Assembly (NCBI GenBank): GCA_963977015.1
Contig: CAXBMO010000019.1
Location: 50,083 to 114,082 of the forward strand
Source of the DNA: an uncultured bacterium
GTDB taxonomy: Bacteria; Verrucomicrobiota; Verrucomicrobiia; Verrucomicrobiales; DEV007
Reading direction: 5' to 3'
DNA length: 64,000 nucleotides
The position numbers and the translations under genes are program-made. The notes under the pieces are model-generated. The model saw only the letters and a list, made by a program, of their open reading frames with translations, had not been told where the DNA came from and did not search any database. Positions 593 through 13,761 of the stretch are shown here, in pieces. Each line of letters starts with the position of its first letter. Position 1 is the stretch's first letter.

Positions 593-1123
593 ATGAATCA
601 GAATCCACAGATATTATCGCTTGTTATAGCTCTTGGACTTATTGGATGCGCAGATGATTCCCCGGAGGGGGCGAGCGACCCGAAGTCCGGGCCTCCCGTG
701 GAAACGGTGACCCTGCAGTGCCGCCAGGGGGCGCTCACATCGTCATACTCCTTTGAGATGGGCAAGGCGACGTCCGGCCTGACCGATATCAACTTCTACT
801 TCGATGGGGACGACTGTTCTGAGGGCGCATTGTTCGGCCGCAATGATACCACGGGCTACATATTTCCGGTCGGTCAAGGAACGTGGGACGAGCTCTCGTT
901 GGACGATCTACCGCAGGAGAGTTCCGAATCGGTCATCGGCTTTCGACCCATGGCGAAGGACAAGGAAGGGCTTGCGTTCTGGGTGAAGACGAAGAGCGCC
1001 AGATTTGCGTTGGTTAGGATCAAGAGTGTGCAACCAGCTGCCTTCCCTGATTTCGAATCGGGCAAAACGGCGCAAGTGGTCTTGGAATGGGCATGGGGAC
1101 GTCCTGACAAAGGAACCGAATAG
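593..1123 (+). CDS. Hypothetical lipoprotein
   Basis: ATG at 593 gives a hydrophobic signal ending in lipobox LIGC. No recognised domain. Confidence 0.65.
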   Translation: MNQNPQILSLVIALGLIGCADDSPEGASDPKSGPPVETVTLQCRQGALTSSYSFEMGKATSGLTDINFYFDGDDCSEGALFGRNDTTGYIFPVGQGTWDELSLDDLPQESSESVIGFRPMAKDKEGLAFWVKTKSARFALVRIKSVQPAAFPDFESGKTAQVVLEWAWGRPDKGTE

Positions 1124-1214
1124 AATACGCGGAGGCGAATCCCAAAGACAGCTTGGAGCGATCGATTGTGGAACGGACTCGTGCCTTCCCTTGCGGTTTC
1201 CTTTTTGGCGCTGG

Positions 1215-1820
1215 TTAGGAGGCGGATGCCAACCAATCCTTCAGCTTCGCCAAGGCCCGTCCCCGGTGGCTCATGCTGTTCTTAATCTCCGACGAGAGTT
1301 GGCCGAAGGTTTCGCAGTGGCCTTCGGGAATGAAGAGCGGGTCGTAACCAAAGCAGCCTTCGCCTTTTTCCTGATTCGCGAGGATGCCCTCGACGGCACC
1401 ATCGAAGGTGGCGAGAACCTGATTCTGGCTGGCGAGGGTGAGGACGCAACGAAAGCGGCCACTGCGCGCTTTTCCTTTGGCCCCGGTTTTGTCGAGTTCG
1501 ACGAGGAGCTTTTTGCGGTTGGATTCGTTGGTCGCGTTTTCGCCGGAGTAGCGGGCGGAGTAGACGCCGGGCGCACCGTCCAGGGCATCGACTTCAAGCC
1601 CAGAGTCGTCGGCGATGACGGTTGCTTCGGGCATGGCCTGGCTGGCGGCGAGGGCTTTGATGGCGGAATTTTCGTGGAAGGTGGTTCCGGTTTCCTCCGC
1701 GGGCTCAAGCTCGGGGAAGGCGGTCAGGTCCACGATTTCGTCGTAGAAGTCCGCAAGGATCTCGCGGAATTCCTCCGTTTTGTGGGTGTTGTGCGTGGCA
1801 ACAATGAGCGTTTTGGACAT
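1215..1820 (-). CDS. rdgB: RdgB/HAM1 non-canonical purine NTP (dITP/XTP) pyrophosphatase
   Basis: Motifs ATHNTHK, ADDSGLEVDALDGAPGVYSARY, FGYDPLF and KNSMSHRGRAL. Confidence 0.97.
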   Translation of the reverse strand: MSKTLIVATHNTHKTEEFREILADFYDEIVDLTAFPELEPAEETGTTFHENSAIKALAASQAMPEATVIADDSGLEVDALDGAPGVYSARYSGENATNESNRKKLLVELDKTGAKGKARSGRFRCVLTLASQNQVLATFDGAVEGILANQEKGEGCFGYDPLFIPEGHCETFGQLSSEIKNSMSHRGRALAKLKDWLASAS

Positions 1821-1847
1821 CGGCAGACCATGCTACATTCCTCCGAA

Positions 1848-4292
1848 ATGTCACACGGTCATCCCTTCGAACTCCTCTCTCCTGCCGGTAACTGGGATTG
1901 TGCCCGCGCGGCGGTGGCCAATGGCGCGGATGCGATCTATTTCGGGTTGCCGGCGTTCAATGCGCGGATTCGGGCGGACAACTTTACGGAGACGGATCTT
2001 CCGGAGCTGATGACGTTTCTGCACGAACGCGGCGTTCGCGGGTTTGTTGCGTTCAATACCCTCATTTTTACGGGCGAGTTGGAGGCGGCGGAGCGTCAAT
2101 TGCGATTGATCCACGAGGCGGGCGTCGATGCGATCATTGTCCAGGATATCGGGTTGGCGAAGATGGCTCGGGCGATTTGTCCGGGCTTGGAGCTTCACGC
2201 CTCGACCCAGATGACAATCACGTCGCCGGAGGCGTTGGAGTTTGTGAACGCGGCGTTCGAGTTGGATTGCGCGGTGATCGCGCGGGAGAATTCGCTGCGC
2301 GAGATGAAGTTGTTTCGCGCGGATGAAGCCGGGGCGGTGAAGCTGGAGACGTTCGTGCACGGGGCGCTGTGTGTGGCCTATTCCGGTCAATGCCTGACGA
2401 GCGAATCGCTCGGTCAACGCAGCGCCAATCGTGGCGAATGCGCCCAGGCGTGCCGGATGCCGTATGACCTGATCGTCGATGGCGAGCAACGCGATCTGGG
2501 CGACAAGCGGTATTTGCTTTCGCCCCAGGATCTGGCGGGGATCGATGAGATTCCAGCTTTGATTGAGGCGGGGATCTCCAGTTTCAAAATCGAGGGGCGT
2601 CTCAAGACTCCCGAATACGTGGCGGCGGTGACCCGCGTGTATCGGAAGGCGATTGATGCCGCCTTGAATGGGGAAGGGGAGCGGGCCAGTGAAGCTGATC
2701 GCTATGAATTGGAGATGGCGTTTTCGCGCGGGCTTCACAGCGGCTGGCTCAACGGGATCGACAACAAGAAGCTGGTTCATGCCCGGTTCGGGAAGAAGCG
2801 GGGCGCCTTTGTCGGGACGATTTCGCAGGTGGGGCCGGATTGGGTCGAAGTGGAGCCTCAGGTTCCGGTGAAGAACGGCGATGGCGTGGTGTTTGATACC
2901 GGAGGCAACACGGACAAGGAGCAGGGTGGCCGAATTTATGGCGTCCATGGCAAGCGGCTCAGTTTCCAGCGGGAGAAGATTCGGTTTCAGGATCTGAAAG
3001 AGGGTGACCGGATTTGGAAAACGGATGATCCGGCCCTGAACGCGGAACTGCAGAAGTCGTGGAACGAATCGCGGCTCAAGCCTCAAAAGCAGATGTTGAC
3101 CTGGGCGGTGGCTGGGCGGGCCGGGGATCCCTTGATCCTCACCGACTCAGGAACGGGAGCGAAGGTTGCTTCCTCGATTCCGCTGCAGGTCGCGGAACAA
3201 CGGCCGCTGGCGGCCGAGTTTCTCCAGAAGCAGTTTGGCCGGCTCGGCAACACGGCTTACCAATTGGAGTCGCTGGATGTCGATCTGGAAGGCGAGGTGA
3301 TGCTCCCGGTGAGCGAGCTGAACCGGATGCGGCGGGCGATGGTCGAGAAACTGGAGCAGGAGCCTGACGCGGCCAAACCGGCTCGTGTTTCGACGAACGT
3401 TTCCGTTGCGGAGTTGCTTCCCAAGCTTCCTGAGAACGACCGGGGTGCCGAACCGGTTCTTTATGTGTTGTGCCGCAATCAGGAGCAGGTTGATGCGGCG
3501 CTTTCCGCCAAGGTGGAACGCATCTACGCCGACTTCGAGGATGTTCGGCGTTATCGCGACGTCGTGCGATCGGTTCGCGAGAGCGGTGTGAACTCGCGCA
3601 TTTATCTGGCGACACCGCGCATCCAAAAAGCGGGCGAATCCGGCTTGTTCCGAGTCGTTGAAAAAGCGAAGCCGGACGGCGTTCTGGTTCGCAACCTGGG
3701 CGGAGTGCAGCACTTTCGCGAGCACGGCGAACTCGAGATGATCGGTGATTTTTCGCTCAACGTGGCCAACCCGATCAGCGCGGAATTTTTCCGGGGCCAG
3801 GGCTGTCGGAACCTGACGATTTCCTACGATCTCAACATTGGCCAGGTGCTTGATCTCCTGGCGAAAGCGCCACCGGCCTGGTTCGAGATCACGCTGCATC
3901 AACACATGCCGATGTTTCACATGGAGCACTGCGTGTTTTGCTCGTTCATCTCCGAAGGGACGGACGTCACCAATTGCGGGCGTCCCTGCGATACCCACGA
4001 AGTCGAGTTACGCGATCGCGTTGGTCAGCGCCATATTCTGAGCGCGGACGTGGGTTGCCGCAATACGCTCTACAATGGCCGGGCGCAAAGCGGCGCCCGA
4101 TTCTTTGGGAACCTGCTCGATTCCGGGTTGAGACAGTATCGCGTGGAGTTGCTCAAGGAGAATCGCGAGGAGGCGGCCGCGACGATCACGGCCTATCAGG
4201 ATCTCCTGAGAGGGAGTGAGGGCGGGACCCAACTCTGGGAACGCCTCCAAGTGGAGTCGAAGCTGGGAGTGGTCGAGGGAACGTTGGCCTGA
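1848..4292 (+). CDS. U32-family Fe-S protein with DUF3656, RlhA-like (23S rRNA hydroxylation)
   Basis: Motifs ELLSPAG, GADAIYFG, HGALCVAYSGQC, NRGECAQACR and FKIEGRLK, followed by a long C-terminal region with a second degenerate U32 module. Start trimmed to 1848 (1830 is possible) because the upstream frame is antisense to rdgB. Confidence 0.88.
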   Translation: MSHGHPFELLSPAGNWDCARAAVANGADAIYFGLPAFNARIRADNFTETDLPELMTFLHERGVRGFVAFNTLIFTGELEAAERQLRLIHEAGVDAIIVQDIGLAKMARAICPGLELHASTQMTITSPEALEFVNAAFELDCAVIARENSLREMKLFRADEAGAVKLETFVHGALCVAYSGQCLTSESLGQRSANRGECAQACRMPYDLIVDGEQRDLGDKRYLLSPQDLAGIDEIPALIEAGISSFKIEGRLKTPEYVAAVTRVYRKAIDAALNGEGERASEADRYELEMAFSRGLHSGWLNGIDNKKLVHARFGKKRGAFVGTISQVGPDWVEVEPQVPVKNGDGVVFDTGGNTDKEQGGRIYGVHGKRLSFQREKIRFQDLKEGDRIWKTDDPALNAELQKSWNESRLKPQKQMLTWAVAGRAGDPLILTDSGTGAKVASSIPLQVAEQRPLAAEFLQKQFGRLGNTAYQLESLDVDLEGEVMLPVSELNRMRRAMVEKLEQEPDAAKPARVSTNVSVAELLPKLPENDRGAEPVLYVLCRNQEQVDAALSAKVERIYADFEDVRRYRDVVRSVRESGVNSRIYLATPRIQKAGESGLFRVVEKAKPDGVLVRNLGGVQHFREHGELEMIGDFSLNVANPISAEFFRGQGCRNLTISYDLNIGQVLDLLAKAPPAWFEITLHQHMPMFHMEHCVFCSFISEGTDVTNCGRPCDTHEVELRDRVGQRHILSADVGCRNTLYNGRAQSGARFFGNLLDSGLRQYRVELLKENREEAAATITAYQDLLRGSEGGTQLWERLQVESKLGVVEGTLA

Positions 4293-4303
4293 GCTGGTTG
4301 CGG

Positions 4304-4840
4304 TTAGGCGGCGCCACCGCGTTTCTTCTTTTTCGGAGCGTCCGTCACCCTTGCCTCCAGCAGTCCGCGATGAGCCTCGCCACCGATTTGATCCAGCACC
4401 CGCTGGTAGATTTTGCCCATTTGCTCGGCTTCTTCTTCCGTGAGGTATTGAACGAAATTTTGTTCGATCAAGGGGCGGTAGGTTTTCCAGGCTTGATTGA
4501 GGGCCCGGCGGCCGGCTGCGCTCAGGCTGACCTGGAAGACTCTTCCATCGCTGCGGCTCTGCTTGCGCAATAGCAGGCCGCGTTCGGCCAGGCGGGCGGC
4601 GCGGCGGGACATTCCGCTTTTGCTGAGAAGCACCGCATCCGCCAGTTCCCCCATGGTCATGGTCTCATTCGTGGCCTCGTTGACGGTGAGAAGCACGTCG
4701 TAATCGCCGAAGGAGATGCAGCCCTCGGCCTGTAATCCTTCGTCAATCTTTTGGCAGGTCAAAGCATGGACGGTGAGGAACAGTCGCCATGCCACTTGCT
4801 GCGGCAGTTTGTCCGGAAAATTGGATGCTGGAGGATTCAT
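4304..4840 (-). CDS. MarR-family transcriptional regulator
   Basis: Winged-helix pattern DYDVLLTV...MGELADAVLLSKSGMSRRAARLAERGLL...DGR...LSAAG. Confidence 0.92.
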   Translation of the reverse strand: MNPPASNFPDKLPQQVAWRLFLTVHALTCQKIDEGLQAEGCISFGDYDVLLTVNEATNETMTMGELADAVLLSKSGMSRRAARLAERGLLLRKQSRSDGRVFQVSLSAAGRRALNQAWKTYRPLIEQNFVQYLTEEEAEQMGKIYQRVLDQIGGEAHRGLLEARVTDAPKKKKRGGAA

Positions 4841-4890
4841 GAAGATGGGACAAGAACCCCGATCGGGGCTGTCTGCAAGTGCTGAGCAAA

Positions 4891-4908
4891 TAGTTGCACA
4901 TGCAAATA
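4891..4908. promoter_or_regulatory. Palindromic operator, probable MarR binding site
   Basis: TAGTTGCACATGCAAATA contains the dyad TTGCA-CA-TGCAA and lies in the divergent intergenic region between marR and the operon. Confidence 0.6.
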
Positions 4909-4918
4909 AATGTCTGGG

Positions 4919-4934
4919 TTGGCATTGAAGATGC
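4919..4934 (+). promoter_or_regulatory. Putative sigma54 (-24/-12) promoter of the ABC-Rieske-glnT operon
   Basis: TTGGCATTGAAGATGC has GG-N10-GC spacing with TGGCA and TGC cores, about 90 nt upstream of the permease. Confidence 0.65.
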
Positions 4935-5023
4935 TCGATGGTTGAGGCGACTAGCAAGTCTTTTCCAATGTCCACGCCTTTTGCCAACTCTTCACCACTC
5001 ACGCGTCATCGTGTGATTCTGTA

Positions 5024-5797
5024 ATGATTGATTTCGGAAGTTCCATCAACAGCGGATCTCGTCTCGGGTTAGGCGTAGCTGCGTGGGTCTGCTTTCTGGG
5101 AGGTTGGTACCTCCTGGCCACGTCCGGTTTGGCCAATGCCGCTCTCCTTCCGGATCCGCTTCAAGTGGGACGAGCGTGGTGCGAACTCTTTGCGGAGCGG
5201 GGGTTCCTTCATGACGTTGCACAGAGTGTAAAGCGGATCTTCCTGAGTTTTGGAATCGCGCTGTTGATCGCTCTTCCCCTTGGAATGTTGATGGGGGCGT
5301 TTGTCCCGGTGGAAGCATTCTTGAATGCTCTCGTTTCTCCTTTTCGATATCTTCCGGCTCCGTCTTTTGTTCCGCTTCTACTGATGTGGTTGGGAACAGG
5401 GGATGGTCAAAAAGTGGCACTTCTGGTGATTGGGGTGGTCTTTTTTTTGACAACGATGTTCATGGATAACACCCGGGCGGTGCGTCCGGAACTGATTGAT
5501 TGTTCGCGAACGCTTGGTGCGAATCGATTGCGTGTTCTTACCCATGTAATACTTCCAGCCGCCCTACCCAGCTATGTAGATACGGCCAGGCAAATGCTGG
5601 CGGTGAGCTGGACCTATCTGGTGATCGCGGAAATCGTCGCCGCCAGCAACGGGATCGGAGCGATGATGATGCGGGCCAAACGCTTTGTTCAGGTAGACGA
5701 CATCATGGCGGGCATCCTGACCATTGGAATTCTTGGGCTGCTGACCGATGCCGCGATTCGCTATCTCCATCGCCTGTTCTTTCGCTATCTCCACTAA
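5024..5797 (+). CDS. ABC transporter permease (NitT/TauT/SsuC type)
   Basis: Multi-TM protein with LLPDP, RYLPAPSFVPLL, an EAA-like loop (ELIDCSRTLGA), LPAALP and W.YLVIAE. Confidence 0.92.
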   Translation: MIDFGSSINSGSRLGLGVAAWVCFLGGWYLLATSGLANAALLPDPLQVGRAWCELFAERGFLHDVAQSVKRIFLSFGIALLIALPLGMLMGAFVPVEAFLNALVSPFRYLPAPSFVPLLLMWLGTGDGQKVALLVIGVVFFLTTMFMDNTRAVRPELIDCSRTLGANRLRVLTHVILPAALPSYVDTARQMLAVSWTYLVIAEIVAASNGIGAMMMRAKRFVQVDDIMAGILTIGILGLLTDAAIRYLHRLFFRYLH

Positions 5798-5824
5798 CTA
5801 AACATCAATACCACCACCAAACCT

Positions 5825-6901
5825 ATGACTACAATACATCGAAACCTGAGCGTCATTGCCGGCTGCTGCCTGCTCTTCTCTGGTTGCAGCAAACCTGAGG
5901 GCGGGGAGGCGGCTTCCACGGAAGCCTCCGTGACGCCGCAAACCGTGAAAATCTCTCTCTTCTCCTGGCCGGGATACGCCTTCTGGTTCGTTGCGAAAGA
6001 GAAGAACCTCGTTCCGGAGTTGGATCTGGATCTTGTGATTATTGAGGATCCCTACGAGAGCTTTGCCCAGATGGCGGCCGGCCAGTTGGACGTGACCTCT
6101 TCCACCGTGGAATACGGCCCGATCGCAGCTGATCAGGATGTGCCCGTAAAGTTGGTGACCTACACCAACCCTTCTTATGGAACGGATAAGATCATCCTCG
6201 GCCCGGGAGTGACCAGTGCGGCAGATCTCAAGGGAAAGGAAGTTGCCGTTCTCGAAGGAGGCCTGACCCAGATCTATATGGGAATCTGGCTCGAGGAAAA
6301 TGGCGTCAAATTTGACGAGGTAAAGTATAGCAACCTGATCATGGACGATGCGGTTGCAGCCATGGTCAGTGGCAAAGTGGCCGCTGGTGAGTTCTGGGAG
6401 CCTTTCGGCAGTAATGTATTATCCAGTCTTCCCGGTTGCACGGTCGCGGCGACCTCAAAAGATCCGTATTATAAGAAAACCGCGCTCCTCGGAGACGGGA
6501 TGTACATGAGTGGCTCTTTTTTGTCCGAGAAGCCGGAGCTCGCAAAGTTGACCTTGAAGGCTTACTTCAAAGCGGTTGAATTCTGGGAGGCCAACCCGGC
6601 CGAGGCCAATGCGATCATGGCAAAAGGCCTGAACTTTCCGTTGGAAGACGTCGAAACCGTGATTGGAGCCTCCGGGGAGTCGAGCGACGGCGGAGTCTAC
6701 GCATTCAACTATGAAGAAGCCGGCCAGTTCATGGGTGTCCTGGAAGGGGTGCCTCCCTTTGGCGGGAATGGCGAGATCAAGAATCATTGGAAGCTCACCA
6801 ACGACTGGTGGGTGAAGTTCGGAGCGGTCGGGAAAGACTATCCGATGGAATCCGGCGTCGATCTGGCACCCTTCACGGCGCTTGCTGAAGAAGGCCTCTA
6901 A
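5825..6901 (+). CDS. ABC transporter substrate-binding lipoprotein (SsuA/NMT1-like)
   Basis: Lipobox (FSGC) and motifs SWPGY, DLKGKEVA and WEPF. Confidence 0.9.
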   Translation: MTTIHRNLSVIAGCCLLFSGCSKPEGGEAASTEASVTPQTVKISLFSWPGYAFWFVAKEKNLVPELDLDLVIIEDPYESFAQMAAGQLDVTSSTVEYGPIAADQDVPVKLVTYTNPSYGTDKIILGPGVTSAADLKGKEVAVLEGGLTQIYMGIWLEENGVKFDEVKYSNLIMDDAVAAMVSGKVAAGEFWEPFGSNVLSSLPGCTVAATSKDPYYKKTALLGDGMYMSGSFLSEKPELAKLTLKAYFKAVEFWEANPAEANAIMAKGLNFPLEDVETVIGASGESSDGGVYAFNYEEAGQFMGVLEGVPPFGGNGEIKNHWKLTNDWWVKFGAVGKDYPMESGVDLAPFTALAEEGL

Positions 6902-6947
6902 GGAAGACCCGCTCACCCCTTTTATAGTGCTTGTTTCATCCTTGCCC

Positions 6948-7679
6948 ATGCCCAAGCCCGCGGGCCCTGGCTGTCTCCGGTTTCCGGAGATGGTCAGGGT
7001 TCCGCAAGGGGAAGGCATCATGGGCGCCGTTACGGAAGACAAGTTTGCAACCTCGGTGGAGCTTCCGCCGACACGAACCCATTTTTCGCGGGAGTTTGCG
7101 CTCAGCCGAACGCCGGTGACCCAGGCGCAATGGAGCGAGGTGATGGGGGAGCTTCCGCGGGAGTGTCCTACTGGGGTTGATGCGACCTGCCCGGTTGTGG
7201 GAGTGTCCTTTGCCGATGTCATGATCTATCTGGAGAAACTTTCCCAGTTGCGTGGGGAGACCTACCGTCTTCCGAGCGAGGCTGAGTGGGAGTATGCCTG
7301 CCGCGCGGGTTCGGTCTCCATTTTTCCCTTTGGATCCAACATCAGCCTGGGTGATGCCAATTATCTGTATGATGAGCGGGGGACGGCCATCGGCTGCGGC
7401 GCCCTCACTCCAGTGATGACGTATCCCGCGAACGCGTTTGGGTTCTGCGACCTGTTGGGAAACGTCTGTGAGTGGACCGCCGATCTGTGGCATCCGAGTC
7501 ACGACGGCGCTTCTCCCAACGGCGCGGCGCGGACCGGCGGAGCGAAAACGAATTGCCGGACCATCCGCGGCGGTGCGTGGGATCATCTTCCCCGGGTTCT
7601 GCGCGCTTCCTGGCGCGATTGGGCTCCGGAAGAGGCCCGCTGGGACAATCTGGGCTTTCGCGTAGCCCATAACCTTTGA
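6948..7679 (+). CDS. Formylglycine-generating-enzyme (FGE/SUMF1)-fold protein
   Basis: Motifs PVTQAQW, YRLPSEAEWEYACRAG, NAFG..DLLGNV.EW, RGGAW and GFRV. Start is uncertain. Confidence 0.88.
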   Translation: MPKPAGPGCLRFPEMVRVPQGEGIMGAVTEDKFATSVELPPTRTHFSREFALSRTPVTQAQWSEVMGELPRECPTGVDATCPVVGVSFADVMIYLEKLSQLRGETYRLPSEAEWEYACRAGSVSIFPFGSNISLGDANYLYDERGTAIGCGALTPVMTYPANAFGFCDLLGNVCEWTADLWHPSHDGASPNGAARTGGAKTNCRTIRGGAWDHLPRVLRASWRDWAPEEARWDNLGFRVAHNL

Positions 7680-7686
7680 AGAACCA

Positions 7687-8559
7687 ATGAAACTCTCTCT
7701 TTTTAAAACACTCTGGGGACATGAGTCCTCGCTTTCGGATGCGATCCAATGCTGCCACGATGCCGGCTTTCAAGGCATTGAAAGTCCCGCCCCGCGCGAT
7801 GGGTCCGAGCGGAAGGCCTTCTTTGAGGCGCTGGAGGCTGCCGACCTGAAATGGATTGCGGAAGTCAGCACCTGCACCCTGGACGGGACCTACGTTCCGC
7901 AGCCTGGTCGCAGCGTTACCGATCACCTGGATTCGCTTCGCGAGGGGGTGGAGCGGAGCCTCACTGGAACCCCACTTTTTATCAATACCATGGCTGGGTA
8001 CGATGCGTGGAGCATTGCCGATGCCATTGCGTTTTATCAGGGGGTTGTGAAGCTGGAGGAGGAACTGGGAATCCCGATCTCTGCGGAGACGCATCGAGGT
8101 CGGTCCACTTACAGCCCGTGGATTACGCGGGACATTTTATTGGAGACACCGGACTTGCGACTCACCTGTGATTTCAGTCACTGGTGCGTGGTGAGCGAGC
8201 GCCTGATTCTCGACGAAGAACCAGAGATTCTCCAGCTTGCCGCGAAGCACGCGTATCACATTCAGCCGCGGATTGGGTATGGCCAGGGGCCCCAGGTTCC
8301 CGACCCCCGTGCTCCGGAATATCAGGAAGCGCTCCAGGCTCACGAACGTTGGTGGACGGTGCTTTGGGAGGCGATGGCGGCTCGCGGGAGGCGGGAAATG
8401 ACCATGACGCCTGAGTTTGGGCCGGATGGTTACCTTCAATGTGCACCGTTCACCAGGGTGCCTGTCGCCGACCTTTGGGACATCAACACCTGGGTCGGGC
8501 ATCGCCAGTTGGAACGCTTTCAGAACCACTTTCAAAATCAAACCATCGTATCCTCATGA
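7687..8559 (+). CDS. Sugar phosphate isomerase/epimerase-like TIM-barrel metalloprotein
   Basis: Motifs GFQGIE, ETHRGR, DFSHW and TPEFGP, typical of the xylose-isomerase-like/AP-endonuclease-2 family. Confidence 0.8.
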   Translation: MKLSLFKTLWGHESSLSDAIQCCHDAGFQGIESPAPRDGSERKAFFEALEAADLKWIAEVSTCTLDGTYVPQPGRSVTDHLDSLREGVERSLTGTPLFINTMAGYDAWSIADAIAFYQGVVKLEEELGIPISAETHRGRSTYSPWITRDILLETPDLRLTCDFSHWCVVSERLILDEEPEILQLAAKHAYHIQPRIGYGQGPQVPDPRAPEYQEALQAHERWWTVLWEAMAARGRREMTMTPEFGPDGYLQCAPFTRVPVADLWDINTWVGHRQLERFQNHFQNQTIVSS

Positions 8560-9791
8560 CAACACTAACCGAACCATTACCTCCCGTCCAATCCACCAAG
8601 GACGAGTCCCTTTTCGCGGCGATTCTCGCTTCGGCGGAGAAACCGCGCGAAAAATCAACCAGCCTTCCCTCTGCGGCTTACCACGATCCTGAGTTCCTCA
8701 AGTTCGAGGAAGCTGAGATATTCAGGAAAGAATGGATCTCACTCTGCCATGTTTCACAGGTGGCCAAGGCAGGCGATTTCGTTCGTGTCGATGTCGCCGG
8801 CGAACCGATGTTGGTCGTTCGCGGAAAAGACATGGAGATCAAGGTCCTGTCCCGCACCTGTCGTCACCGGGGCATGGAAATCATGCCTTCCGGGTTTGGG
8901 CATCCGAATGAAGGGAACCAACGCGTCATCCTTTGCCCTTATCATCTCTGGAGTTATGATCTCAACGGCAAATTGGTTGGAGCTCCGGAAATGCAGGAGG
9001 CCGCGGAGTTCGACCGCAGCGAGGTCTGTCTCCACCAATATAGAAGCGAGGTTTGGGAAGGGTTTGTCTTTGTGACACTCTCCGACGACATTCCTCCCGT
9101 CGCCGAAAAGTATGCTCAATTGAAGGACGACTTTGTCGGGAGATGGGACATGGGGGATGGAGAGTTGGTTTGGTCAGCTCATTGGGAATGCAATTTCAAC
9201 TGGAAGATTCTTCTGGAGAACTTCATGGAGGCCTACCATCACCTCGGTGCCCACATGAAGACGCTGGAGCCGTTCCTGCCGGCCAAGGGATGCTGGACGG
9301 AGCCTTACGATCCGGAATTCTCCTGCATGCATCTTCCGCTCAAGGACAGCATGATCGAGGAAATTCAAAAAACGAAAGACGCCGGCACTCCGTTTCCGGT
9401 CTTTCCGACCCTGGAACTGGATGACTACTGCAAGTGGTGGGTCTTCCTGGGGAACCCGAACTTCCTGCTCTTCTCCGCACCGGACCGGGTTTACTGGTAT
9501 CGCCTGCTTCCCACCGGGCCGGAGACCTGCACGCTCATGACCACCATGATTGTGCCGAAGGCGGCCTTGGAAATGCCGGACTACGAAGCCGTGCTCGAGA
9601 AGGAAATCGCCGCGGGAATCGAGTTTCACATGGAAGACATGGAAGTCTGCGCCGCCACCCAGCGCGGTGTCAAATCAACGGGCTTCACCCCGGGACGTCT
9701 CAGTCATTTGGAGCAACCCATCTGGCACTTTCAAAAATACCTGGCTGAGGTGATTCGGAAATCCTCAGTTGGTCAATCCCTTGCCCAGTAA
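8556..9791 (+). CDS. Rieske non-heme iron oxygenase alpha subunit (choline/carnitine monooxygenase-like)
   Basis: Rieske ligands CRH...CPYH, mononuclear Fe motif NWK...[13 protein letters not shown] and a C-terminal ED. ATGA overlap with the upstream gene. Confidence 0.92.
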
Positions 9792-9798
9792 CATCAAG

Positions 9799-11160
9799 AT
9801 GATATCCAATTCAAAAATTCAGGCTCTCCAGGAGTCGCTCAAGGCGCAGGGCGTCAAGTACTGTGTCGGCGCCTATGTCGATATCCACGGAGTGCCGAAG
9901 GGGAAGTTCGTTCCGATCGATCACTTCCAGCATTTTGCCCACGGGTCCGAGCTTTACACCGGCTATGCGCTGGATGGCCTGGGACAGCGACCGAATGATG
10001 ACGAGATTGCCTCCGTTCCTGACGTTGATTCAATCACGATCCTGCCGTGGAACAAGGAAGTCGCCTGGATGCCGGCGGACAACACGTTCAAAGGGGAGCC
10101 TTATCCCATCAATACGCGGGTTGCCTTGAAGAAGCAGTTGCAAGCCGCCGCCGACATGGGGTTTGGATTCAATCTGGGGATTGAGTGTGAAGTCTTTGTC
10201 GTCAAACAAAGGGAGGATGGAAGTCTGGAGATCCCGAACGACGACGATGATCTGGAGAAGTCGTGTTATGATGTGAAACGCTTCCTCGACCGCTACACGT
10301 GGTTGGATAAGGTCTCGACCACGATCAACGATCTGGGTTGGGGACTCTATTCCCTCGATCATGAAGATGCGAACTCGCAGTTCGAGTTCGACTTCAATTA
10401 TGCAGATGCGTTGACGATGTGTGATCGCTACATCTTCTTCCGTCTCATGGCCAAGCAGTATGCTGCCGAGGAAGGATTGCTCGCCACCTTCATGCCGAAG
10501 CCGTTCGCCGATAAAACGGGTTCGGGCGCGCATTTTAACATGTCCCTGTTCGACAAGGATACCGGGGAGAACCTTTTCAAGTGTGCCCCTGAAGCCGATC
10601 CGCGTGGATTGGGTTTGACCGAGCTGGGCTACCAATTTATTGGCGGAATTCTCAAGCACGGCCGGGCGCTGTGCTGTGCTTATGCACCAACGGTAAATAG
10701 TTACAAACGACTGGTTCGTCGGGGCTTGATGTCCTACTACACATGGGCACCCGTGTTCAATAGTTACGGCAAGAACAACCGGACGAATGCGATGAGGGTG
10801 CCAATGGGTGGCGGTCGCGTTGAGTCCCGCAATGCCGACGCCTCCTGCAATCCCTACCTCGCGGCGACCCTTGCCCTCGCGGCGGGTCTGGAAGGAATTC
10901 GCGAAAACCTGGATCCCGGCGAGGCGATCGAGGACAACCTTTACGAACTCACTCCGGAGCAATTCGCAGAACGGGGAATCGAAGAATTACCAACCACGCT
11001 GAAGGAGGCGGTGGAAGCATTCTCGGCTTCGCCCTTTGTGGAGGATGTGTTGGGTTCGGAACTCCGACAGGAATTCATCACTTATAAATCCGAGGAATGG
11101 CGTCAATACCACCAGCGAATCAGTCAGTGGGAATATGAGCAGTATGCAAGGTTGTTTTGA
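9799..11160 (+). CDS. glnT: Type III glutamate-ammonia ligase / gamma-glutamyl-amide synthetase (GlnT/GmaS family)
   Basis: Motifs [48 protein letters not shown] and NPYLA. The DHED..QFE pattern is of the GlnT/GmaS type. Confidence 0.88.
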
Positions 11161-11215
11161 TGCAGCAGAGCGTGGATGCCAATGAACTCGATTTCTTTTA
11201 CGTAGGTAAGGTTTC

Positions 11216-12205
11216 TTAGTCCGTGAGCACCGGCGCCAGATAGAGGTTGCGATAGGAAACCGCAGTGTGGTCACCCTGAATATAGATGGGGCCGGGCGCC
11301 GAGGGATCGGTATGGATGGCCCCGGCCGTCGGTCCCGGCACGGGCTGATTGTCGATCACGGTGACGCCGTTCAAAACGACGGTGACATGGCGATCCACCA
11401 GGGTAAGATCATAGGTTTGCCATTCACCTCCGGGTTTTCCGGCATTCGTCGATGGGGGAATCCTCCCAAAGATTGCCCCAACGCCCTGGAGGCCCTGCAT
11501 CCGGCTGTCGCGATCCACGACCTGAGCCTCATACATCCCCCGAAGATAGATGCCGCTGTTGCGCTGCGCGCCGACCAGGAATTCGACATGTAGCCAGAAA
11601 TCCTCAAAAACCGCTTCGGTCTTCAGGTTCGCATGATCGCCTGTGGCGCTGAAGTCGGTTTTCGGGGTGCTGTTGACGAGCATGCCATCCTTGACGCTCC
11701 ATCCGTTGATTTTGTCAGGCTCATGAGGGATCCAGCCGGTCAGGTCCCTGCCATTGAAGAGCGCAATGGGATGCCCAAATCGAACCTTGGAGAGGTCCGG
11801 TGCTTTGGTTGGCATGGGCGGAATCTTCGTGCCTGTAAACGCGACGTTCTCCGCGGTGCCATCAGGAAAGGTCTGCAAAATTGTCCCGTCGAGTTTTCCA
11901 TCGACGATCCCAACGTCGACCGTTTGCGTTGGCACGCCCTCCTTCTTCCGTTTCTTGAGCGCAAATTTGATCCGGCCATCAACGACTTCGACGTTTTCAA
12001 ACGGACCGGCAGATCCAACATACAATCGGAAGAACACGACCGGATTTCCTTCCTTTTCCTGAATGCTCATCCAACCGGGAACACCGGATTCAACCTCGAG
12101 CGACCAGTCCCCCCAAAGGCTCTCGGGAATCGATTGAGCATGCACCGAAGAGATGAAGAGCAGGAACAGGCAGGGCAGGAGTTTGCGATGGAGAGTCATG
12201 AACAT
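11216..12205 (-). CDS. DUF1080 (3-keto-disaccharide hydrolase-like) secreted protein
   Basis: Signal peptide plus LFNGRDLTGW, NSGIYLRG.YEAQV and GPIYIQGDH..V.YRN. Confidence 0.9.
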   Translation of the reverse strand: MFMTLHRKLLPCLFLLFISSVHAQSIPESLWGDWSLEVESGVPGWMSIQEKEGNPVVFFRLYVGSAGPFENVEVVDGRIKFALKKRKKEGVPTQTVDVGIVDGKLDGTILQTFPDGTAENVAFTGTKIPPMPTKAPDLSKVRFGHPIALFNGRDLTGWIPHEPDKINGWSVKDGMLVNSTPKTDFSATGDHANLKTEAVFEDFWLHVEFLVGAQRNSGIYLRGMYEAQVVDRDSRMQGLQGVGAIFGRIPPSTNAGKPGGEWQTYDLTLVDRHVTVVLNGVTVIDNQPVPGPTAGAIHTDPSAPGPIYIQGDHTAVSYRNLYLAPVLTD

Positions 12206-12252
12206 GGGGTTGGGAAGTGAGCGTTAAAGGGGCCATCAAGGAGATGCCCGCC

Positions 12253-12268
12253 GCGTTTGAAATGCCAA
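12253..12268 (-). promoter_or_regulatory. Possible sigma54 promoter for the DUF1080 gene
   Basis: Minus strand reads TTGGCATTTCAAACGC (GG-N10-GC), about 50 nt upstream of the start. Confidence 0.4.
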
Positions 12269-12372
12269 CGTTTTTCTGAGTGGGGATTCGAAAAATGACG
12301 GGGCGGTAATGAAAATAGAATCGATTTGAAGGAAACTGGGGTTTCATCTTTTTGACCAGCCGCAAATTCCCC

Positions 12373-13761
12373 ATGAAATGGTTCCCCCAACTCTTCCTCG
12401 CTCTGACCGTGTTCTCCAGTAGTGCACTCGGTCAGGATCAGCCCAACTTCCTGTTTCTGCTTTCCGACGACCAGGCCTGGAACGAACTCTCCTGCCAGAT
12501 GCATCCGGAAATGCCGGAGTCGAAGAGCCAAATCGTGCAGACTCCAAACATCGCGAAACTGGCGAGCCAGGGGATGCGATTCAGCGCGGCATATTCACCG
12601 ACATCCGTGTGTTCGCCCTCGCGCATCAGCCTGCAAACGGGGAAGAGTCCGGCCCAATGTGGTTGGACCAAGGCGGGGCCGGTGATGAGAGCTGGAGCCG
12701 GGTTCAAGCTCATTCCGCCGCCGAGCCGGAGCCACATCGAAGCTGGCGAAGTGACGATTGGCGAGCTGCTGCAATCCGCCGGCTATCGCACGGCACATTA
12801 TGGCAAGTGGCATCTTGGGGGCGGCGGTCCCGGGAATCATGGTTACGACGAGAGCGATGGAGATACTGGAAACCGGGACGCAGCTCCACACGTCGAGCCC
12901 AATCCGGTCGATATCTTTGGGATGAGCAGTCGCGCTCAGGCGTTCATGGAGACGAGCCGGAACGCTGGCAAACCCTTCTTCATCCAGATGTCGTTTTACG
13001 CCCTGCATTATCCGCAGAATGCGAGCAGGTCGCTGGTCGAGAAATATCAGGCCTTGAATCCGCGCGGTAGGGAAAGGGAGATTGGGCGTGCTGCGATTTC
13101 CGAAGATCTGGATCGTGGGGTGGGGGAGTTGATGGCCAAAATCGAGGAATTGGGGATCGGGGACCGCACCTACGTGATTTACATGTCGGACAATGGCAGC
13201 TCGACCGGCAACACGCTGAATGGCGGGAAAGGCGACGTTTGGGAAGGAGGGATCCGGGTGCCGCTGATGGTTCGGGGGCCCGGGATTGCGGCGAACTCAT
13301 GGAATCATCAACGCGTCGTCGGTTACGACTTTTATCCCACGTTCTGCAAATTGGCCGGTGTGAAGCAAAAGCTGCCTTCGACGACCGAAGGAGGACTGAT
13401 CGATCATCTCTTCCACGGAAGTTCCGAGCCTGTGAAACGTCCGCGCGAGGAACTGGTTTTCCATTTTCCGCACTACCAGGGCGATGCGCCTCACACCGCG
13501 TTGTTTCTTGGCGACTACAAGTTGATCCGGTTCTACGAGGATCATTCGCTCCAACTCTACAACGTCAGTGAGGATATCGGAGAACGGAACAATTTGTTGA
13601 GCGAGAAGCCGGATTTGGCGGACCAGATGTTGGCACGGATGGATGCTTATCTGGAGGCGGTGAACGCGGGATTGCCAACGCCAAATCCGAACTATGATCC
13701 GGAGAATCCGCCCAATCTTCGAGAGGTGAACCGGGGCAAGAAGGGCGGAAAGAGAAAGTGA
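12373..13761 (+). CDS. Sulfatase (Cys-type)
   Basis: Signal peptide plus PNFLFLLSDD, CSPSR, GKWHLG, SDNG and EGGIRVP. Confidence 0.95.
   Translation: MKWFPQLFLALTVFSSSALGQDQPNFLFLLSDDQAWNELSCQMHPEMPESKSQIVQTPNIAKLASQGMRFSAAYSPTSVCSPSRISLQTGKSPAQCGWTKAGPVMRAGAGFKLIPPPSRSHIEAGEVTIGELLQSAGYRTAHYGKWHLGGGGPGNHGYDESDGDTGNRDAAPHVEPNPVDIFGMSSRAQAFMETSRNAGKPFFIQMSFYALHYPQNASRSLVEKYQALNPRGREREIGRAAISEDLDRGVGELMAKIEELGIGDRTYVIYMSDNGSSTGNTLNGGKGDVWEGGIRVPLMVRGPGIAANSWNHQRVVGYDFYPTFCKLAGVKQKLPSTTEGGLIDHLFHGSSEPVKRPREELVFHFPHYQGDAPHTALFLGDYKLIRFYEDHSLQLYNVSEDIGERNNLLSEKPDLADQMLARMDAYLEAVNAGLPTPNPNYDPENPPNLREVNRGKKGGKRK

Follow-up and report, generated by a model that had tools for sequence, protein, structure and literature searches.

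Which compound supplies nitrogen through a bacterial operon in which an importer, a formylglycine-generating enzyme (FGE)-fold protein, a triosephosphate isomerase (TIM) barrel, a Rieske oxygenase, and a GlnT-type ligase are encoded side by side? The operon lies at 4304-11160 of a 64,000-nt stretch of DNA (contig CAXBMO010000019.1, hereafter the window) from an uncultured bacterium of the Verrucomicrobiales. That bacteria can draw nitrogen from free guanidine and methylguanidine is a recent insight, and our favoured answer, to which we give a probability of roughly 55%, is that the operon is a feeder module that imports a substituted guanidine, oxidatively strips the substituent, and frees guanidine for nitrogen use. 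Judged from its protein families, the cluster is most likely a variant of the methylguanidine-to-guanidine feeder of 2025, built from unrelated enzymes. The answer is carried by the recurrence of these families beside guanidine carboxylase genes and by the alternation of the TIM-barrel gene with the lyase gene mgdL.

A tightly packed operon divergent from a MarR gene

The open reading frames (ORFs) of the window were listed and scanned with Pfam and NCBIfam. The cluster comprises six tightly packed plus-strand genes, encoding the permease, binding protein, FGE-fold protein, TIM barrel, Rieske oxygenase, and GlnT, which face a MarR gene.

4304..4840 (ORF to 5002), minus strand: MarR-family regulator (PF12802 and PF01047), probable start ATG 4840
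4894..4905, no strand: imperfect palindrome TTGCAC/ATGCAA, candidate MarR operator, read from the sequence, position conserved in relatives
4920..4934, plus strand: putative -24/-12 (sigma-54 type) promoter element TGGCAT-N5-ATGC, from motif and conservation
5024..5797, plus strand: ATP-binding cassette (ABC) permease, NitT/TauT type (PF00528, BPD_transp_1)
5825..6901, plus strand: lipoprotein substrate-binding protein, NMT1/SsuA-like (family scans; lipobox visible)
6882 (ORF start; likely ATG 6948)..7679, plus strand: FGE-fold protein with an FGE-sulfatase domain (PF03781)
7687..8559, plus strand: 290-aa xylose-isomerase-like TIM barrel (structure model; without a Pfam match)
8556..9791, plus strand: Rieske non-haem-iron oxygenase alpha subunit (PF00355 and PF00848, Ring_hydroxyl_A)
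9769 (ORF opens with TTG; likely ATG 9799)..11160, plus strand: GlnT/GmaS-type ligase (TIGR03105)

The intergenic gaps are 27, 46, 7, and 7 nt, and the TIM and Rieske genes overlap by an ATGA at 8556-8559. An earlier note on this DNA had described a MarR gene divergent from six co-oriented genes with gaps below 50 nt and one ATGA overlap, and this layout stands. For the MarR gene, ATG 4840 is the probable start because the conserved operator and promoter fall inside the longer ORF that extends to 5002; MarR orthologues with 40-68% identity are likewise divergent from the operon in related loci. The same note had spoken of an ABC system. A permease and a binding protein are indeed encoded, but family scans revealed no ABC ATPase gene within the cluster, where the importer consists of these two components only instead of the three encoded together. 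The nearest homologues of the related clusters' ATPase in this genome are on another contig (C1) and ~17 kb upstream of the window.

The same families recur beside guanidine carboxylase genes

All named homologues of the Rieske protein are Verrucomicrobial (Luteolibacter, Haloferula, and Akkermansiaceae). Among 41 related genomes, 10 encode a close Rieske homologue and the same 10 encode the TIM protein, in agreement with the earlier proposal of a nitrogen-scavenging operon whose neighbourhood would be conserved. When 10 related loci were fetched, FGE was present in 9, TIM in 7, and GlnT in 6. A guanidine carboxylase was detected in 18 of the 41 genomes, 16 times above the TIGR02712 cut-off and twice as a contig-end fragment. 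All 10 genomes with Rieske and TIM were among them (9 above the cut-off, 1 contig-end fragment), and 8 genomes had the carboxylase without Rieske and TIM (7 above the cut-off, 1 fragment). Rieske and TIM were therefore found in 10 of 18 carboxylase genomes and in none of the 23 others, although related genomes are not independent and these counts describe a pattern, not a statistic.

The families of the cluster stand beside urea/guanidine carboxylase, UAAP1 and UAAP2 (TIGR03425 and TIGR03424), and allophanate hydrolase genes in the 10 related loci and in a second cluster of the present genome, and orthologues of the window set directly adjoin the carboxylase genes in other genera. One example is Luteolibacter algae KCTC 22040 (locus L034 in our numbering), where a MarR gene is divergent from genes for the permease, binding protein, FGE-fold protein, TIM barrel, Rieske oxygenase, an esterase, a NikR-like protein, cgdA, (cgdB), carboxylase, and allophanate hydrolase, in this order. 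The esterase gene, an alpha/beta-hydrolase of the BD-FAE/esterase type (L034:12130-12945) between the Rieske and NikR-like genes, was not seen in the other loci. A NikR-like gene (ribbon-helix-helix plus NikR_C) lies between the GlnT/Rieske genes and cgdA in Verrucomicrobia and Gammaproteobacteria (L019:4624-5199, minus strand; L034, L063, L069, L074, and L080). In guanidine operons, its product may serve as a regulator or as a component linked to nickel.

The guanidine carboxylase pathway is present in this genome, all of it on contig C1 and none of it in the window. The carboxylase there scored 1806 bits with TIGR02712 (cut-off 1304), and it is accompanied by UAAP1, UAAP2, and allophanate hydrolase. 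These genes belong to a second, larger paralogous cluster (L019, 98500-118000 of contig C1), which is 44-51% identical to that of the window and conserved across genera. Its order begins with a binding protein, a permease (475 aa), a creatininase-family hydrolase, GlnT2, an AhpD-like protein, and a flavodoxin-like reductase; continues with a divergent Ahr-like aldehyde reductase, Rieske2, a short-chain dehydrogenase/reductase (SDR), FGE2, a PuuE-like deacetylase, and TIM2; and ends with a divergent ABC ATPase, a NikR-like protein, UAAP1, UAAP2, and the carboxylase, with allophanate hydrolase just beyond.

We further collected loci through the TIM protein. A representative search returned 1205 relatives, and an alignment of 16 was used to fetch 80 loci from named genomes, and each locus was scored with the cluster proteins in tblastn searches. 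When only loci flanked on each side by 8 kb or more were counted, genes of the carboxylase pathway were found in 11 of 19 with a Rieske gene, 3 of 9 with an FA_desaturase-like oxygenase, and 4 of 5 with a 2-oxoglutarate (2OG)-Fe(II) oxygenase. Guanidine-I riboswitches flank three of the four proteobacterial TIM loci scanned (L063; L084, with two copies; and L096), and a guanidine-II riboswitch was found in L063; the fourth, L074, had no guanidine riboswitch.

The TIM-barrel gene lies beside oxygenase genes of three types

The TIM protein had no Pfam or NCBIfam match at E 0.001, PF01261 included, and a sequence search against solved structures gave no match. Its AlphaFold model (pLDDT, the predicted local distance difference test score, 96) has the eight-stranded alpha/beta barrel of the xylose-isomerase-like (AP_endonuc_2) fold. 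Foldseek matched the model to endonuclease IV, ketose 3-epimerases, Art22, and xylose isomerase with a probability of 1.0, template modelling scores of 0.55-0.64, and 11-18% identity, and PF01261 occurs in 43-58% of the members of its Atlas neighbour clusters. E134, D162, H191, and E243 are conserved at the ends of strands 5-8, where proteins of this fold usually bind their metal. The family also conserves several tryptophans and acidic residues.

An oxygenase gene is located within 3 kb of the TIM gene in 70 of the 80 loci: 47 encode Rieske proteins, 16 FA_desaturase-like membrane di-iron proteins, and 7 2OG-Fe(II) proteins. When loci with 3 kb on both sides were considered, the proportion was 47 of 50, and the other three have an oxygenase further off. 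The FGE gene was never found together with the FA_desaturase-like or 2OG types. In Gammaproteobacteria, the TIM gene is followed by that of the FA_desaturase-family membrane di-iron oxygenase (Haliea salexigens DSM 19537, L096:10866-11879, and 15 other loci). Beside TIM and the oxygenase in Halieaceae stands a permease ~60% identical to that of the window, and the gammaproteobacterial binding protein is likewise ~60% identical. With the FA_desaturase-type loci, the module would have a third kind of oxygenase.

TIM and MgdL alternate beside MgdH-like oxygenases

According to Sinn et al. 2025 (PMC12508155), the guanidine carboxylase operon of Vreelandella boliviensis includes mgdH and mgdL. MgdH is a 2OG dioxygenase that converts methylguanidine to an unexpectedly stable N-(hydroxymethyl)guanidine, and MgdL, annotated as a "hypothetical protein", splits this hemiaminal into guanidine and formaldehyde, with D49 and R51 being essential (PMC12508155).

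Using the Paraburkholderia 2OG gene that lies beside TIM, we searched 401 genomes of Haliea's order and obtained 20 MgdH-like loci, including the query's own (L103). Locus L107 has the published order of carboxylase, 2OG oxygenase, and ORF, and its 225-aa ORF carries D49-L-R51. A profile made from this ORF detected an MgdL-family ORF immediately downstream of the oxygenase gene in 13 of the 20 loci, with the D-L-R motif invariant in 13/13, and in the other 7 the TIM gene is directly upstream of the oxygenase. No locus contained both genes, and none contained neither. In the maximum-likelihood tree of the oxygenases, one clade (support 100/99) comprised 13/13 MgdL-linked rows, 12/13 TIM-linked rows, and 1 partnerless row, and a second clade held the thirteenth TIM-linked row (L071) with the other 11 partnerless rows. 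Within the 100/99 clade, TIM- and MgdL-linked rows interleave, and the partner type switches at least twice.

The TIM and MgdL families showed no detectable homology in hhalign (probability 0.1%), and the MgdL-family profile had no Pfam match. Because TIM and MgdL alternate and their profiles are unrelated, we read TIM as a non-homologous stand-in for MgdL; from gene order, the TIM barrel is a candidate hemiaminal lyase. That TIM might itself be MgdL was rejected, as the locus with the order gca-mgdH-mgdL has the 225-aa D49-L-R51 ORF, which has no profile similarity to TIM. No MgdL-family match was detected in this genome or in any TIM-containing locus, and tblastn of the MgdH-like protein against the whole genome gave no match at 1e-10. 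The published mgdL forward primer matched none of the 135 loci examined. Two ORFs of 161 and 125 aa beside the Paraburkholderia 2OG gene were discarded as arginine-rich and non-coding, one of them overlapping the riboswitch leader.

The closest described pathway is MgdH/MgdL methylguanidine demethylation (PMC12508155), not the catabolism of choline, carnitine, or betaine. In both, genes for an oxygenase and a second small enzyme are combined with the guanidine carboxylase pathway and with an ABC importer, and the cluster's TIM family occupies the place of mgdL beside MgdH-clade oxygenases in 7 of 20 loci. The cluster differs in that its oxygenase is a Rieske protein with a predicted FGE-fold partner instead of a 2OG dioxygenase, its second enzyme is a TIM barrel unrelated to MgdL, its control would be exerted by MarR and sigma-54 instead of riboswitches, and the carboxylase genes are on another contig.

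Alternatively, the substrate could be another nitrogen-rich compound that ends in urea or guanidine, such as creatinine/creatine, a cyclic ureide, or a guanidino-cyclitol, with TIM acting as an isomerase or epimerase. TIM has sugar epimerases and isomerases as its structural neighbours, IolN and IolM matched weakly in NCBIfam, and the cluster on contig C1 has additional genes for a creatininase-family hydrolase, a PuuE-like deacetylase, an SDR, an Ahr-like reductase, and an AhpD-like protein. However, neither the window cluster nor the TIM/2OG loci have these additional genes, all of the NCBIfam matches are far below their cut-offs, and the alternation of TIM with MgdL suggests that both do the same job on a hydroxylated guanidine. 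We consider this explanation unlikely.

The Rieske oxygenase and its predicted FGE-fold partner

C103, H105, C128, H131, H229, H234, and D362 of the Rieske protein are invariant across 35 sequences, which identifies it as a Rieske alpha subunit; no gene for a beta subunit or a reductase was found in the cluster. Its best solved relatives are Stc2 (3vca and 4qup), 3n0q, and CntA (6y9c), and its best NCBIfam match is GbcA (NF058607) at 151 bits, below the cut-off of 670 for that equivalog. The earlier note had placed the protein with the oxygenases of choline, carnitine, and stachydrine that attack C-N bonds, and these matches support its membership in the C-N-cleaving N-demethylase group (Stc2/GbcA/CntA). 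It shares with Stc2, GbcA, and CntA the domain pair, the Rieske ligands, and an Fe motif of the E-x3-E-x2-H-x4-H type. It differs from them by its low identity, a conserved extra stretch inserted between the CxH and CxxH parts of the Rieske motif, the lack of an adjacent reductase gene, and the predicted FGE partner.

The FGE-fold protein scored 156 bits with PF03781 (cut-off 23), and its fold is therefore clear. Its best solved relative is PvdO (5hha, E 1.3e-27), and it reached 130.5 bits with the PvdO equivalog NF051459, for which the cut-off is 500. When aligned with the SUMF1 chains 2aft/2afy, it had no cysteine in the GGxxxCxxxxC stretch, so both catalytic positions, presumably C336 and C341 of the human protein, are unmatched, and no cysteine is conserved in this stretch across 35 relatives. 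Because both positions are unmatched and there is no signal peptide, the protein is not an FGE. PvdO also lacks the FGE catalytic cysteines. The PF03781 fold is shared with PvdO and with other members that are not FGEs (the C-terminal domain of EgtB, ToxD, and CalU17); unlike PvdO, the present protein is cytoplasmic and without a signal peptide, and its gene is seldom found without that of a Rieske oxygenase. An FGE gene is present in 41 of the 47 Rieske loci, and in 4 of the 6 others a contig end truncates the locus.

A complex of the Rieske and FGE-fold proteins was modelled from alignments of 35 sequences each. The score was 0.65, and the best of three controls reached 0.00; among 80 solved complexes, 58 reach the mark set for this score, compared with 2 among 110 mismatched pairs, counts that are only approximate here, as our own alignments were used. 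The runs agreed in at least 90% of contacts, the partner pLDDT was at least 90, and the contacts involve residues 92-94, 124-134, and 140-157 of the Rieske-cluster domain and conserved residues of the FGE partner. The model supports binding between the two proteins; we know of no solved complex of a Rieske and an FGE-fold protein. ORFs of 600-737 aa with an FGE domain that looked like fusions proved to be frame coincidences, with Rieske and FGE in different frames.

A sulfonate or sulfate-ester system, in which an SsuA/TauC-like transporter would be combined with an FGE that matures a neighbouring sulfatase, is very improbable. The transporter parts have weak matches to the SsuA, TauC, and SsuC models and a sulfatase gene is located at 12352-13761, but both catalytic cysteine positions of FGE are unmatched, the transporter matches are all below cut-offs, and just 2 of the 80 related loci gave a sulfatase match (25-30% identity).

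The role of GlnT

GlnT belongs to the TIGR03105 equivalog (623.9 bits; cut-off 469.6). Against solved structures, it matched the glutamate-methylamine ligases 9qur (379 bits) and 7cql (309 bits) better than ordinary glutamine synthetase (GS; ~240 bits), and in this respect, the earlier placement near amine-glutamylating enzymes holds. By these scores, GlnT appears to be a GmaS-like ligase. It differs from GmaS/GlnT proteins in its genomic company, as relatives pair it with a creatininase-family hydrolase in guanidine operons, usually in a separate importer operon next door. Further GS-type genes of this genome are the second GlnT paralogue, a 750-aa ORF, and a 355-aa ORF. At three loci (L068, L077, and L091), two different GS-like genes, of the GlnT and GlnT2 types, are found in one cluster, and therefore at least one has a specialised role. 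Plain ammonia assimilation by GlnT is possible.

The earlier note had proposed the import and N-dealkylation of a methylated amine or betaine, with GlnT trapping the released amine in place of mgs/mgd and without any link to guanidine. Oxidative dealkylation for nitrogen scavenging survives in our reading, but neither the substrate class, given the guanidine genes outside the window, nor the role proposed for GlnT does. Capture of a released amine by GlnT is not supported: GlnT is absent from all 7 TIM/2OG loci and normally lies beside a creatininase-family hydrolase in a separate transporter operon. As for mgs/mgd, no match was found among the cluster families, and the genome was not searched for these genes. 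The amine proposal can point to the betaine and carnitine oxygenases as the nearest characterised Rieske relatives, to the glutamate-methylamine ligases as those of GlnT, and to a window free of guanidine genes. Nevertheless, it does not account for the repeated occurrence of the module beside guanidine carboxylase genes or, in proteobacterial loci, beside guanidine riboswitches, for the restriction of Rieske plus TIM to carboxylase-bearing genomes, or for the alternation of TIM with MgdL beside MgdH-clade oxygenases, and the GbcA score of 151 against 670 also speaks against it. On balance, we regard it as quite unlikely.

The main rival to the plain guanidine feeder is a gamma-glutamyl handle. 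GlnT would ligate glutamate to (methyl)guanidine or an amine, the Rieske/FGE pair and TIM would act on the conjugate, and a creatininase-family hydrolase encoded elsewhere would remove the glutamyl group. Similar gamma-glutamyl logic is used in the aniline dioxygenase, isopropylamine, and putrescine (Puu) pathways. The position of GlnT directly after the Rieske gene in the window fits this idea, as does the occurrence of GlnT and of the creatininase-family gene each in 17 of 19 well-flanked Rieske loci. In one proteobacterial locus (L074), a class-I glutamine-amidotransferase/peptidase-C26 gene lies beside GlnT. The substrates of Stc2, GbcA, and CntA are amino-acid-like and carboxylate-bearing, three loci have two different GS-like genes, and another GS-type ORF (750 aa) is present in the genome, so that GlnT need not be housekeeping. 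However, GlnT and the creatininase gene are found in none of the 7 TIM/2OG loci, indicating that TIM needs no glutamyl conjugate; the pair also occurs in proteobacterial guanidine operons without a Rieske gene; and the window cluster contains no hydrolase for glutamyl removal. A handle of this kind is conceivable, although the odds are clearly against it.

Importer proteins and regulation

The best NCBIfam matches of the permease are SaoP, TauC, and SsuC, all below cut-off, and the binding protein has only weak matches, to SsuA and TauA, among solved structures. With TIGR03427, the binding protein of the window scored 41 bits, compared with 165 bits for substrate-binding protein 2 (SBP2) of L. 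algae (L034), an orthologue of SBP2 in the other cluster. By this comparison, it is not of the TIGR03427-like SBP2 type encoded in the guanidine operon.

Upstream of the permease gene, the -24/-12 motif TGGCATtgaagATGC is located at 4920-4934. The motif alone is not significant, with 2 matches in 64 kb and 0.62 expected. However, in 10/10 related MarR/permease intergenic regions, TGGCA[CT]-N5-[TA]TGC directly follows a TTGC-N4-GCAA palindrome, and the GG-N10-GC sigma-54 element noticed earlier is therefore a conserved feature upstream of the operon. We infer that the element acts as a sigma-54 promoter and that the neighbouring palindrome is an operator for MarR. An inverted-repeat search with a seed of 6 returned nothing, the palindrome arms being 5-6 nt long, and terminator and sigma-70 scans of 4200-11400 gave no more hits than shuffled sequence.

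Neighbouring genes

Upstream of the cluster, 1005-4292 of the window (plus strand) is occupied by a 1095-aa ORF with peptidase U32 and DUF3656 domains and weak TrhP/UbiU-like matches, which is unusually long for its family. Downstream, 11216-13761 encodes a secreted 3-keto-disaccharide-hydrolase (DUF1080) protein followed by the sulfatase (12352-13761).

Discussion

How would the proposed feeder work? The lipoprotein binding protein and the permease would take up a substituted guanidine, borrowing an ATPase encoded elsewhere. The likely substrate, which we read from the neighbouring genes, is an N-alkylguanidine such as methylguanidine. The Rieske oxygenase, probably complexed with the cysteine-less FGE-fold protein, would hydroxylate the carbon on the guanidino nitrogen. 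The metal-type TIM barrel would then split the resulting N-(hydroxyalkyl)guanidine hemiaminal into guanidine and an aldehyde, which would be formaldehyde if the substituent is methyl. Free guanidine would pass to the carboxylase, carboxyguanidine deiminase (CgdAB-type), and allophanate hydrolase encoded on contig C1 and end as ammonia. A sigma-54 promoter would drive the operon, and the MarR protein would repress it from the neighbouring palindrome.

Several observations weigh against this reading. As regards the guanidine link, no guanidine carboxylase gene is found inside the window, and 8 of the 19 well-flanked Rieske loci have no carboxylase-pathway gene within 10 kb. No guanidine riboswitch was detected in 3/3 Verrucomicrobial loci scanned, and no Rfam family, guanidine riboswitch included, reached its gathering score across the 64-kb window. 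As regards the enzymes, a reductase gene for the oxygenase is missing from the cluster, the closest Rieske relatives act on carboxylate-bearing betaines rather than bare guanidines, and GlnT has no defined step in the model. Two Rieske-TIM loci (L070 and L083) have no FGE gene despite 10 kb flanks, and none of the 120 longer FGE-domain proteins listed was fused to a Rieske domain, the latter being weak evidence. The MgdL family was delimited from one locus by gene order and residue numbers, not from the published sequence. Finally, H. salexigens contains a TIM/FA_desaturase cluster (L096) and a separate MgdH-like/MgdL-like pair (L104), and the present genome has two paralogous sets of Rieske, FGE, TIM, and GlnT that are only 44-51% identical, which implies two substrates.

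From the double set of H. salexigens, TIM-type modules may act on a guanidine other than methylguanidine. Because of this double system, the two diverged sets in the present genome, and the different binding proteins, several substituted guanidines are likely to be substrates, with methylguanidine being only the best-precedented one. No description of this enzyme set was found in the literature searched, in line with the earlier view that the gene combination is not a described pathway.

A more specific joint proposal is that the FGE-fold protein is a Rieske subunit seated on the [2Fe-2S] domain, that TIM is a hemiaminal lyase independent of MgdL, and that the GlnT/creatininase pair provides a gamma-glutamyl handle on guanidines. 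All three together are doubtful, and we offer the combination only tentatively. If it were true, a range of substituted guanidines would serve Verrucomicrobia as nitrogen sources through undescribed chemistry.

Three protein families without an assigned function have become testable, namely the TIM family, the FGE-fold partner, and the GlnT/creatininase pair. A single route for methylguanidine demethylation, MgdH/MgdL, has been reported so far, in 2025 (PMC12508155). The present results suggest that hydroxylation followed by enzymatic hemiaminal cleavage has been built at least three times with unrelated oxygenases and twice with unrelated lyases. They also suggest that freshwater and soil Verrucomicrobia widely use the Rieske version with an FGE-fold partner, and that substituted guanidines may be an overlooked pool of organic nitrogen.

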